Assembly (NCBI GenBank): GCA_963645945.1
Contig: CAVIUA010000003.1
Span: 149-64,148 of the forward strand
Direction of reading: 5' to 3'
Length of the DNA: 64,000 bases
DNA from: a bacterium
GTDB taxonomy: Bacteria > Bacillota_I > Bacilli_A > RF39 > UBA660
Shown: positions 44,978 through 47,110 of the stretch, one piece after another
Position numbering within the stretch: position 1 is the first letter of the stretch
How the letters are laid out: every line of letters starts with the position of its first letter
Position numbers and translations under genes: made by a program
Notes under the pieces: generated by a model
Databases searched by the model: none
Seen by the model: only the letters and a program-made list of their open reading frames with translations
What the model was told of the DNA's origin: nothing

Positions 44978-46058
44978 TATTATTTTCCTCCATAATCATT
45001 TGAAAATAATCTACTGAATAATTCCTAAAAAATTTTTTAGGATCTTCTACCCAATTATTTACTTCTTTCCACAATATATCTATTCCTTTATCTCCATAAC
45101 ATTTTATAAAACTATCATAATTAATAAATGCTCCATTAATATCTTTATAGGCATCATTTTTTAAATATAAACTTTTAGAGAACTTAGCACCAGACCAATC
45201 TAAAATAACTGGTGCGAAAAATCTTATTGGAAATTCATTAAAACCTAATCTAACAAGTCCTTCAGTATGCATTCGCTGAGCCCAAATGCCAGACCAATCT
45301 CCACCATCTAACATAATTGTTAAAGTGTTGTTTTTCTTATCTTCCTCTAGCATCGCTACCCCTTTAGTTAAATCTCTAAATTGAGTATTTATATCCACAT
45401 ATTCTTCATTTTCTTCTGTAACTTTTATCTCATATAAACCATGGATTGGACAATATCCTTTCAAAATTAACTCATTCTTATTATGTTTTTCTTCTAATCT
45501 TTTTATAGTTTTTTTACCAAGACCACACGTTGGACATATTGTCCTAATATGTAAATCTGATGCTGACGGAAATAAAAGTTCTTTAAAATATTCTTTGTCA
45601 TTTACAATATTAATAAGTGATTTTCTTATATATCTATTTTTTTGAAATTCATTATAACTTCTTACAGAATAAGGAATATTAGCCAAAACTGATAATTTTT
45701 CTAAAATCTCATTAAATCTTTTCATATTAATCTGTTCTTTAGATTCTTGTTGATAAAAACTATGTCGTTGATCTTTATAATAAATTTCTTCATTATATTC
45801 TATTGTTTCTGCTGGACTATTTTCCAATTCATCAAATTGAACTTCCGTTTCTACTTTCAAATCATCTCTAATTTTACTCGCTAATGCAAAAGCTGTCATA
45901 AGTGTTGTTATCGTTCCTAGATGCGGACTACTATTAGGTTGTGCCGATGTGTTTATTATTATCTTTTTTTGATTTTTGTACTTATACAAAATTAAATCAC
46001 TAAGTTTATTAGTTACATGAGCAATTCCGATTGGTGGATAAAATACTTCTCTTTTCAT
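44970..46058 (-). CDS. class-I aminoacyl-tRNA-synthetase-like ligase (HIGH/KMSKS)
   Basis: 362 aa with a HIGH-like PHLGT near the N-terminus, a KMSKS-like KFSKS near residue 290 and a Cys/His knuckle CPTCG..CPIHG. It is too short and divergent for a housekeeping aaRS. Confidence 0.5.
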   Translation of the reverse strand: MKREVFYPPIGIAHVTNKLSDLILYKYKNQKKIIINTSAQPNSSPHLGTITTLMTAFALASKIRDDLKVETEVQFDELENSPAETIEYNEEIYYKDQRHSFYQQESKEQINMKRFNEILEKLSVLANIPYSVRSYNEFQKNRYIRKSLINIVNDKEYFKELLFPSASDLHIRTICPTCGLGKKTIKRLEEKHNKNELILKGYCPIHGLYEIKVTEENEEYVDINTQFRDLTKGVAMLEEDKKNNTLTIMLDGGDWSGIWAQRMHTEGLVRLGFNEFPIRFFAPVILDWSGAKFSKSLYLKNDAYKDINGAFINYDSFIKCYGDKGIDILWKEVNNWVEDPKKFFRNYSVDYFQMIMEENNNE

Positions 46059-47110
46059 TATTTACCTCCTCGATATACTGTTACTATTTCTCTCTGAAAT
46101 AGTTCTTTTCCAATTTTAACAAACTTTTTTTCTAATCTGTTTTTTTCTCCTTTTGTAAGAGGGGCAATTTCGTTTATTTCAAAAATTATCTTATTTCCTT
46201 TCAAACTATAGTGCCATGTTCCTTTCAATCCTTTAGAAAACAATATCACGCCTTCGATTTGCCCTGCTGCTTTCCAAATTAGAGTTTTATTTTTTCCGTT
46301 TAGTATCCATTCCTTATCAGAATAACTTATTAATAGCGGATCAAACTTACCAAGAATAATTGGATAACTTATTTTAACTTCTTTACTATCTGGTAATGAT
46401 TCATAATAATATTTTTTATTGTCAATAGATAGATATTTTGCTTTTTTGATATACTTATCTAAATCTTCTTTAATTTCCTTATATTTTAACCCTGACCAAT
46501 GTAAGAAATCCTGTCTTGTTGCCGGTCCATAATATTTAAAATATCTATAAATTAAATCAGAATTTATTTTCTTACTATCAACAATATCATTTTGTTTGTA
46601 TAATTTTTTATCTTCTTCATTAAGAATTCCATATAGCACTTTATGATAAGTAGCTAAAATTAGCAAACCACTCCATGTCATTATCTCTTTTGATTTGTAT
46701 TTTGGTATAATATTTTGAATCTCTGATTTTTCTATTGTTTTTTTATTATTTCCATAAAAAAAATCAGTAATTGAATTTAAGTATTTACTATAATCTATTT
46801 TTAAATGTTTAGCATATTTATACACCCAATTATCACTTTGACGATACAAATCGGAAATTAAATTGTAATCATTTTTATGATATATATGTAATGTTGTTCT
46901 TTGACCCCAACTTTTAATTAAATTATTATTATTAAAAATATTACATTTATAATTGGTTCTATTATATATAGATATTAATGCGTAGTTTTGATATTGGCAT
47001 TGTATTCCAATTAATGATTCAACACACATATCAGCACTTTCAAACTTATCTATTAATCCATTGTTATATAACCTTAATTTTTGCAAATCTAAATTAGAAT
47101 AGTTACTCAT
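46058..47110 (-). CDS. AlkZ/YcaQ-family (HTH_42, DUF1006) DNA glycosylase-like protein
   Basis: 350 aa. LIGIQCQYQNYALISIYNR parallels E. coli YcaQ LLQIDTINIVARSPYLVLFSR, but with the Q-x-Q form seen in AlkZ. QRTTLHIY parallels the conserved RGT(L/I)H motif. FDPLL occurs near the C-terminus. Confidence 0.6.
   Translation of the reverse strand: MSNYSNLDLQKLRLYNNGLIDKFESADMCVESLIGIQCQYQNYALISIYNRTNYKCNIFNNNNLIKSWGQRTTLHIYHKNDYNLISDLYRQSDNWVYKYAKHLKIDYSKYLNSITDFFYGNNKKTIEKSEIQNIIPKYKSKEIMTWSGLLILATYHKVLYGILNEEDKKLYKQNDIVDSKKINSDLIYRYFKYYGPATRQDFLHWSGLKYKEIKEDLDKYIKKAKYLSIDNKKYYYESLPDSKEVKISYPIILGKFDPLLISYSDKEWILNGKNKTLIWKAAGQIEGVILFSKGLKGTWHYSLKGNKIIFEINEIAPLTKGEKNRLEKKFVKIGKELFQREIVTVYRGGK

Follow-up and report, generated by a model that had tools for sequence, protein, structure and literature searches.

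An AlkZ-type HTH_42 protein embedded in a mobile multi-enzyme operon of uncultured gut Bacilli

What would a DNA glycosylase of the AlkZ type do in a mobile operon of a gut bacterium? This question is raised by a stretch of 64,000 nucleotides, denoted here as the window, from contig CAVIUA010000003.1 (assembly GCA_963645945.1, positions 149 to 64,148 of the forward strand; lineage Bacillota_I, Bacilli_A, RF39, UBA660), in which a 350-residue AlkZ-like protein is encoded within a ten-gene operon on an intervening element. To our knowledge, AlkZ-type glycosylases have been studied almost only in Streptomyces, as markers or self-resistance genes of genotoxin clusters. Here, the gene is hard-wired into a compact, horizontally spreading operon of uncultured human-gut Bacilli, and one protein cluster alone occurs in over 300 contig blocks. 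What is new is the integration, and in some relatives the fusion, of an AlkZ-type HTH_42 protein within a mobile multi-enzyme operon that is undescribed as far as the literature and databases searched show.

The gene is an ATG-initiated open reading frame (ORF) of 350 codons with exactly the boundaries given in the first-pass annotation, an earlier reading of the window by eye (Table 1). That annotation assigned the product to the HTH_42 family, and the Pfam search bears this out: the score for PF06224 is 68.3 bits, with 25.9 as gathering cutoff (E=1.2e-18), and the match spans positions 1-322 of the 329-position profile. Among PDB sequences, AlkZ of Streptomyces sahachiroi (5UUJ) is the only phmmer match (E=0.006); the YcaQ/AlkX chains in the same search show no similarity. 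In the alignment to 5UUJ, GIQCQ pairs with GVQAQ of AlkZ, WGQRTTLH with WAMRGTLH, and GKFDPLL with GGFDQYLL. The catalytic motif thus appears in the Q-x-Q form that had been read from the sequence, Q37-C38-Q39 lying on Q-A-Q of AlkZ, and not in the Q-x-D form of YcaQ. The alignment to E. coli YcaQ (MG1655) proposed by eye is reproduced by hhalign, which places Q37-C38-Q39 on Q45-I46-D47; with a single-sequence template, its probability is very low and it serves as corroboration only.

Structure prediction leads to the same assignment. The AlphaFold2 (AF2) model, built from an alignment of 26 clade members (pLDDT 91.5, pTM 0.91), has AlkZ 5UUJ as its best Foldseek match (E=5.6e-17, TM 0.75/0.71), followed by the AlkX/YcaQ-DNA complex 9ZD6 (2026; E=9e-8, TM 0.70/0.64), and these two are its sole significant PDB neighbors. 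The predicted architecture comprises three winged helices and a C-terminal beta-barrel. As regards the beta11/12 hairpin loop that binds DNA in the AZL subgroup, residues 251-300 align to AlkZ without a large indel, and the model has strands at 287-314. Across the 26 clade members, down to 26% identity, Q37 and Q39 are invariant or nearly so, with C, S, or A between them; the same applies to W68-G69-x-R71-x-T73-x-H75 and K255-F-D-P-L-L260, and W279 and W299 are also conserved. The protein thus genuinely belongs to the HTH_42 DNA-glycosylase superfamily and is of the AlkZ type (Q-x-Q). NCBIfam has no model for it, nor for the neighboring ligase and NNMT-like proteins.

Subgroups of this superfamily have been defined by their motifs, namely Q-Phi-D for YcaQ-like (YQL), (Q/H)-Phi-Q for AlkZ-like (AZL), and (H/Q)-Phi-(S/T)-(D/E) for AZL2 proteins (PMC9040887). 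By its Q37-C38-Q39 motif the window protein would fall into the AZL subgroup, with the caveat that the middle residue is Cys or Ser in place of the aliphatic one of AlkZ and the AZL proteins. The YQL subgroup was rejected because all clade members have Gln as the third motif residue and phmmer finds no similarity to YcaQ, and AZL2 was rejected because the motif reads Q-C-Q-Y. TxnU2/4, LldU1/5, and HedH4 are members of the AZL subgroup. With AlkZ, the window protein shares the closest fold, the homologous Q-x-Q motif, the WGxRxTLH and FDxxLL blocks, and a location among enzyme genes instead of housekeeping genes. It differs in its low sequence identity to AlkZ (16%), in its host, which belongs to the gut Bacilli and not to the actinomycetes, and in having relatives that are fused to a methyltransferase. 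Its neighbors are S-adenosylmethionine (SAM)-utilizing transferases, an aminoacyl-tRNA synthetase (aaRS)-like ligase, an AlaDH-like enzyme, and nucleotide-handling enzymes, whereas those of AlkZ are polyketide synthase/non-ribosomal peptide synthetase genotoxin machinery. With YcaQ/AlkX (E. coli YcaQ and T. fusca AlkX, 9ZD6) it has the winged helices and beta-barrel (TM 0.70) and the alignment position of the catalytic motif in common, but not the Q-x-D form. YQL proteins are described as highly conserved, chromosomal, and not clustered (PMC13303869).

The Q-x-Q form, likened in the first-pass annotation to that of the azinomycin B self-resistance glycosylase, is no reliable mark of self-resistance to a natural product. 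The motif G(I/V)Q(A/S/C)Q is present in 95 of 95 homologues retrieved from genomes and metagenomes, among them genes that stand alone on the chromosomes of Listeria, Streptococcus, Furfurilactobacillus, and many Chloroflexi; the homologue of L. monocytogenes is annotated as a YcaQ-family crosslink repair glycosylase. Since every Firmicute and Chloroflexi homologue retrieved carries it, the motif alone gives no signal of a natural-product cluster, and only Streptomyces data underlie the link of AlkZ-like proteins to biosynthetic clusters (PMC9040887). The stand-alone genes of Listeria, Streptococcus, and Furfurilactobacillus resemble the window gene (27-34% identity, GIQ(A/S)Q) but have none of the cassette genes nearby, and they probably represent the pool that gave rise to the cassette gene. 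In a neighbor-joining tree, the cassette-linked proteins are mostly, not strictly, monophyletic, the tree being not robust at 25-35% identity. A search of phages and plasmids with the AlkZ-like protein returned only mislabelled Listeria chromosomal fragments. Regarding a biosynthetic-cluster context, the gene is embedded in a conserved enzyme operon; recognizable genotoxin machinery and an exporter are absent nearby, although some versions of the cassette do reside with exporters, an adenylation enzyme, and a carrier protein. The surroundings themselves were described correctly (a methyltransferase upstream, an aaRS-like gene downstream, an integrative element, DNA of ~26% GC). The earlier interpretation is therefore partly supported, but it missed the decisive context, which is that the AlkZ-like gene is an obligate, translationally coupled member of a ten-gene operon. 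This membership, together with the fusion to a methyltransferase in one clade, makes a purely accessory resistance role less certain.

The operon consists of ten same-strand genes between a promoter-like site and a terminator-like hairpin, in the order NUDIX, dTMP-kinase-like, ASCH-like, UbiE-like methyltransferase, AlaDH-like, methyltransferase, NNMT-like, AlkZ-like, ligase, and S-adenosylmethionine decarboxylase (AdoMetDC). The start and stop codons of the last four genes overlap by 8, 1, and 8 nt, which indicates translational coupling. Judged from its sequence score (TIGR03330, 124 bits against an equivalog cutoff of 75.65), AdoMetDC is a bona fide pyruvoyl AdoMet decarboxylase. The AlaDH-like enzyme stays below the AlaDH equivalog cutoff (TIGR00518, 203 bits against 391.85), and its nearest PDB entries are true AlaDHs (E=3e-51). 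The true start of the NUDIX gene is likely Met30 of the listed ORF because its orthologues have 155 residues. An Rfam scan of 41500-54800 at E<=1 found nothing, so that no riboswitch reveals a ligand. The system has no name in PADLOC, NCBIfam, Rfam, or the literature searched, and no publication was found that links HTH_42/AlkZ with ASCH, a LysRS paralogue, AlaDH, or AdoMetDC.

Table 1. Coordinates of the element, the operon, and the interrupted gene in the window
Feature	Position	Strand	Basis or remark
Intervening element, about 10.5 kb	42717..53260		crossover core about GCAA
spoVD-type class B penicillin-binding protein, 5' half (dimerisation domain, SxxK, SxN)	53212..54306	(-)	orthologue comparison
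DUF5655-domain protein, 280 aa	52325..53167	(-)	in element, outside conserved operon block
Two best sigma-70-like promoter matches	52142..52223	(-)	11/12 each, consensus matches only; 5' of NUDIX
NUDIX hydrolase	51572..52039	(-)	PF00293
dTMP-kinase-like P-loop nucleotide kinase, 200 aa	50941..51543	(-)	PF02223, 53 bits
ASCH-like (PUA-fold) protein, 157 aa	50463..50936	(-)	weak PF04266; PDB 5GUQ/5GUS E=4e-4
UbiE/BioC-like class I methyltransferase, 268 aa	49675..50481	(-)	Pfam and NCBIfam
AlaDH-family NAD enzyme, 374 aa	48575..49699	(-)	PF01262, PF05222
Class I methyltransferase, 247 aa	47851..48594	(-)	PF13649; conserved across cassettes
NNMT/PNMT/TEMT-like class I SAM-dependent transferase, 233 aa	47103..47804	(-)	PF01234, 25.1 bits
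AlkZ-like (HTH_42) protein, 350 aa	46058..47110	(-)	ATG-to-stop ORF, exact bounds; motif Q37-C38-Q39
Truncated class-I aaRS-like ligase, 362 aa	44970..46058	(-)	motifs and fold, no Pfam match
Pyruvoyl-type S-adenosylmethionine decarboxylase, 120 aa, KESH processing motif	44615..44977	(-)	PF02675, 127.9 bits
Terminator-like hairpin, 12-bp stem and T-run	44506..44534	(-)	3' of AdoMetDC
Large serine recombinase (CcrB/CcrC/XisF-like), 527 aa	42761..44344	(-)	at element end
spoVD-type penicillin-binding protein, 3' half (KTG, PASTA domain)	41854..42716	(-)	ORF itself 41854-42723

How tightly the AlkZ-like gene belongs to this cassette becomes apparent from related loci (numbered L001 onwards), over which the identity of the conserved operon ranges from 33 to 99%. 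All of its genes are present, in the same order, in 24 of 24 loci whose AlkZ-like protein is 52-99% identical to that of the window. Versions with a rearranged cassette span 33-45% identity. At 45% identity (L093/94) the cassette is found on another element with three serine recombinases. The versions at 33-34% identity (L034, L097/98) occur in a Clostridium metagenome-assembled genome (MAG) and, next to IS21, in a second common gut lineage, one cassette version having an IS21/giant-helicase context. In L090 (34% identity), the NNMT-like, AdoMetDC, AlkZ-like, ligase, and ASCH genes form one block, followed by genes for a nucleotidyltransferase, an adenylation enzyme, a carrier protein, and two ABC exporters. 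A core of six genes (AlaDH-like, methyltransferase, NNMT-like, ligase, ASCH-like, AlkZ-like) is even found across phyla: in Pseudoalteromonas sp. S4498 it makes up all the cargo of a Tn7-like transposon, and in A. baumannii it is joined by dioxygenases and a pyruvate-kinase-like gene. An HTH_42 gene is present in every locus carrying the NNMT-like gene, whose family is narrow (121 clusters, all of the cassette type, one of them on 383 contigs), and in 6 of 7 architectures the AlkZ-like gene has the ligase gene as its neighbor. The copies of Pseudoalteromonas and of the second gut lineage keep GIQ(A/S)Q, WGQRxTLH, and (K/R)FDPLL.

The A. baumannii copy (CP196001; L096, 10089-11219) is highly divergent and the only one in a cassette with an H-A-S-type motif variant, LHASRE replacing GIQxQ, and it has neither WGQRxTLH nor KFDPLL. 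It lies in a larger cluster with two PhyH dioxygenases and the pyruvate-kinase-like gene, beside a C39-peptidase ABC exporter. Two loci of one MAG (CAKOHQ01; L009 and L024) encode AlkZ-like proteins 99% and 89% identical to the window protein, explained either by a second copy in the genome or by a mixture of strains within the bin. A further clade member of 41% identity occurs without the cassette (L091/L092, 5234-6867). Its gene shows translational coupling to that of a HAD phosphatase with a weak match to the PNKP phosphatase domain, which in L091 looks like a DNA-repair pairing. A PNP/UDP-family gene lies on the opposite strand, and the arrangement is possibly a small repair or salvage module.

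One explanation of the gene, an ordinary housekeeping function in alkylation or crosslink repair that merely hitch-hikes on the element, agrees with the stand-alone Q-x-Q homologues that are common in Firmicutes and with the crosslink-repair annotation of the L. monocytogenes protein. It is very improbable, and was rejected, in view of a linkage that is strict over 33-99% identity, varied gene orders, mobile elements, and phyla, of the translational coupling to its neighbors, and of its fusion to one of them in a whole clade.

Among the readings that take this linkage into account, the one favored, with slightly less than even confidence, is that of a DNA glycosylase removing N-alkylpurine damage caused by the cassette's own SAM chemistry or its product. 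All HTH_42 enzymes characterized biochemically so far act on N-alkylpurine adducts in DNA (PMC9040887, PMC13303869), and this counts for self-protection, as do the full PF06224 match, the predicted fold, the conserved motifs, and the obligate operon linkage seen in the colinear loci, the overlaps, and the co-occurrence of NNMT-like and HTH_42 genes. From these observations, we infer that the AlkZ-like protein would keep the activity of its family, i.e. split cationic N-alkylpurine nucleotides of duplex DNA at their N-glycosidic bond by hydrolysis, and that it would shield the host chromosome from alkyl damage by the operon's chemistry, which may encompass decarboxylated SAM, the three transferases that depend on SAM, and probably purine nucleotides that are N-alkylated. 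Two tiers of protection would result, the nucleotide pool being sanitized by the NUDIX hydrolase and the DNA by the glycosylase. MutT together with MutM/MutY follows a comparable two-tier logic. Coupling or fusion to the NNMT-like transferase would keep the protection stoichiometric with the maker of the alkylated species. A reactive small-molecule or nucleotide pathway is hinted at by the house-cleaning-type NUDIX and the nucleotide kinase, by the exporters, adenylation enzyme, and carrier protein of L090, by the Ham1/RdgB NTPase and DMT exporter of a Pantoea cluster described below, and by the pairing of the AlkZ-like gene with a HAD phosphatase gene in L091.

Gene fusions bear on this reading. 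About a dozen proteins of ~580 residues consist of an N-terminal NNMT-like and an AlkZ-like part, and in five of them (P0055, P0064, P0070, P0072, P0074), mutually 60-79% identical, the junction is identical and linker-less, so that the fusion is stable and not an assembly error. Other fusions join ASCH to the ligase (P0205), the ligase to AdoMet decarboxylase (P0218), and ASCH to the UbiE/BioC-like methyltransferase (a 434-aa protein of L093). Several points weigh against self-protection. A resistance enzyme stably fused to a biosynthetic transferase would be unusual, and a constant linker-less junction over such divergence suggests consecutive steps on one substrate. The element in the window encodes neither genotoxin-type biosynthetic genes nor an exporter. 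A LOG-type N-glycosidase beside the ligase in Pantoea hints at an N-glycosidase as a pathway step, not as repair. Finally, the cassette proteins are uncharacterized, and PADLOC, NCBIfam, and the literature searched give the system no name.

The same fusions lend some weight to a programmed biosynthetic step, the main alternative, which is unlikely but by no means far-fetched. Here, the NNMT-like enzyme would alkylate a purine ring nitrogen and thereby render the glycosidic bond labile, and the AlkZ-like domain would cut it, in a free nucleotide or at a specific nucleic-acid site, yielding an alkylated base or an abasic sugar; the ligase, the AlaDH-like enzyme, the other methyltransferases, and decarboxylated SAM would then elaborate the product. 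Caffeine synthesis, with 7-methylxanthosine synthase and N-methylnucleosidase, offers an analogy. The linker-less fusions are kept across a diversified clade, the HTH_42 gene occurs in all loci bearing the NNMT-like gene and mostly adjoins the ligase gene, the NUDIX, dTMP-kinase-like, and pyruvate-kinase-like genes speak for nucleotide-level chemistry, and the ASCH-ligase and ASCH-methyltransferase fusions tie these enzymes to a nucleoside- or nucleic-acid-binding fold. Against this, free nucleotides are not a known substrate of any HTH_42 protein, the three winged helices of the fold form a cradle for duplex DNA (PMC13303869), and the protein is strongly basic (pI 9.4). Moreover, the NNMT-like and AlkZ-like genes are not adjacent in L034, L095, and L097. 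In a broader form, the HTH_42 fold would have been recruited for a programmed step of alkylating a purine nitrogen and then cutting the glycosidic bond in a mobile cross-phylum pathway, which, around the LysRS-like ligase and ASCH, would make an aminoacylated, methylated nucleobase or nucleoside or replace a nucleic-acid base; we consider this doubtful.

The ligase corresponds to a truncated catalytic domain of a class-I aaRS, and lysine would be the amino acid predicted from its fold. The best Foldseek match of its AF2 model (pLDDT 91.8) is class I LysRS (1IRX, E=1e-9), followed by GluRS, GlnRS, CysRS, and BshC. Invariant residues are H46/G48 of the HIGH motif (here PHLG), K292/S294/K295 of the KMSKS motif (here KFSKS), and a Cys3-His zinc knuckle, and an anticodon-binding domain is absent. 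GluQRS/YadB, MshC, and BshC are truncated class-I synthetase paralogues that ligate amino acids to acceptors other than tRNA ends. The ligase has the same composition (a class-I catalytic domain with HIGH and KMSKS and no anticodon-binding domain), and the BshC and GluRS/CysRS families are among its fold matches, but its closest fold is class I LysRS, and its family is uncharacterized and rare (502 clusters among 1.84 billion representatives). Among ten long aaRS-like matches (500-980 aa), eight have no Pfam domain in their extra regions.

Relatives of the ligase in other genomic settings bear on the role of the AlkZ-like gene. The plasmid NZ_CP045242 of Pantoea sp. JZ29 (L101, 7264-11044) encodes a methyltransferase, the ligase, a LOG-family protein, a DMT transporter, and a Ham1/RdgB NTPase. 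LOG (PF03641) is a nucleotide N-glycosidase family. The LOG gene directly follows the homologous ligase gene and a methyltransferase gene and is accompanied by a house-cleaning NTPase. LOG and Ham1/RdgB hold the positions of the AlkZ-like protein and NUDIX in the window cassette and are a possible functional analogue of this pair. The cluster looks like a small pathway for an exported modified purine that is related to the cassette. That a LOG N-glycosidase fills the equivalent slot argues for the biosynthetic step, although the equivalence is positional only, as just the methyltransferase and the ligase are common to both clusters: LOG has a fold unrelated to that of the AlkZ-like protein, and ASCH, AlaDH-like, and NNMT-like genes are missing in Pantoea. 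On a mobilisable Macrococcus plasmid, the ligase is found with two ATP-grasp ligases and an MFS transporter.

A further explanation is that the AlkZ-like protein is not catalytic and that its three winged helices form a subunit which binds nucleic acid for, or targets, the ligase or the methyltransferase, or that they act as the transcription factor of the operon. The ligase itself has no nucleic-acid recognition domain, its gene almost always adjoins the AlkZ-like gene, and the operon contains no other regulator gene. The flanking phosphates are bound by the QxD side chains in the AlkX-DNA structure (PMC13303869). This explanation is nevertheless quite improbable, given that the signature of the catalytic core (QxQ, WGxRxTxH, FDP) is kept in full, as it is in active enzymes, and that the domain actually fused to the ligase is ASCH and not HTH_42.

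In Streptomyces phages (Picard, Mojorita) and actinomycete plasmids, the ligase forms a minimal module with ASCH, sometimes with a small ATP-binding protein. The module of Picard (L099, gp28-gp29, 6878-8349) adjoins the serine integrase gene, and the Streptomyces plasmids L102 and L103 carry the minimal module as well. Such locations might point to an anti-phage or inter-element conflict system, in which a nucleotide modification would be made or installed by the cassette, and DNA with or without it would be destroyed by the glycosylase as effector. The cassette is always found on mobile DNA (serine-recombinase elements, the Tn7-like six-gene cargo, the IS21/giant-helicase context), the ligase-ASCH module occupies a moron position beside the Picard integrase, and the ASCH, kinase, and NUDIX proteins weakly match PADLOC candidate families (PDC-M11B in the case of ASCH). 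Still, a conflict system is improbable: nuclease, sensor, and abortive-infection-type effector are lacking, and a secreted product agrees better with the exporters beside L090, L100, and L101. The five most characteristic proteins (AlkZ-like, ligase, AlaDH-like, AdoMetDC, NNMT-like) have no match in PADLOC, and a catalogued defense system was rejected on these grounds.

The competing readings differ in their consequences. If the gene protects its host from the operon's own chemistry, the logic of resistance-guided mining would make the operon a candidate source of a DNA-reactive gut metabolite. If it encodes a pathway enzyme, the glycosylase fold would have a new biochemical use, and this would be the first non-repair, biosynthetic use of the HTH_42 glycosylase family, in a system common in the human gut. 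In either case, the methyltransferase-AlkZ, ASCH-ligase, ligase-AdoMetDC, and ASCH-methyltransferase fusions define a testable multi-enzyme system.

The element that carries the operon interrupts a spoVD-type gene. Relative to intact orthologues, the two halves of the penicillin-binding protein abut at QNSCN/PGFV, and the intact gene of L017 aligns to the window up to 53261 and again from 42716, with a 4-nt overlap. The left junction (...TGCAA/TCTTGG) lies at about 53261/53260 and the right one (...AGCAA/CCCAGG) at about 42717/42712, from which the element is delimited to about 42717-53260, splitting the SxN motif of the transpeptidase. The recombinase gene stops about 45 bp short of the right junction. 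With 710.6 bits, the reconstructed protein exceeds the cutoff of 688 for TIGR02214, the spoVD equivalog, and precise excision would be predicted to restore the spoVD-type ORF. The predicted empty site attB contains …TTCCTGCAAYCCAGGATTCG…; a search of JGI metagenomes for the attB pattern gave 0 matches, which is uninformative because the contigs of the organism derive from ENA/Logan.

Intervening elements in sporulation genes are known from skin in sigK, SPbeta in spsM, and gin in gerE. As in these cases, a large serine recombinase is encoded at one end of an element that lies in frame inside a sporulation-type gene, a likeness that is read from the DNA. The target, a spoVD-type penicillin-binding protein gene, and the cargo, a metabolic operon and not a prophage remnant, are different. 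No mention of spoVD as a target was found in the literature retrieved on intervening elements, and with this element a spoVD-type gene would join the few genes that excisable elements are known to split.

In comparison with L005-L010, L014, and L017, the operon is 92-99% identical where the host spoVD halves are only about 56-70% identical. The block of DNA identity begins exactly at 52170 and ends at 44558-44608, so that the 7.6-kb operon (44558-52170) is an exchangeable module; its pattern of identity points to recent horizontal transfer among gut Bacilli. The recombinase sets also differ, a single 527-aa gene being present here and genes for 325-aa and 569-aa proteins (52% identical) in L005-8. 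The DUF5655 protein, encoded outside the block, is less conserved between elements (83-88%) than the operon (96-100%). Linkage of operon and spoVD is seen in three configurations, namely inside spoVD with a recombinase, immediately upstream of intact spoVD-mraY without a recombinase, and beside an intact spoVD on the opposite strand (L001-L004, 13491-15401; L017, 14383-16030, minus strand; L024). Directly downstream of the spoVD 3' half, an ABC-F ribosomal-protection-like ATPase is encoded at 40015-41685 (-) (NF000355, 441 bits against 380), possibly an antibiotic-resistance-type gene.

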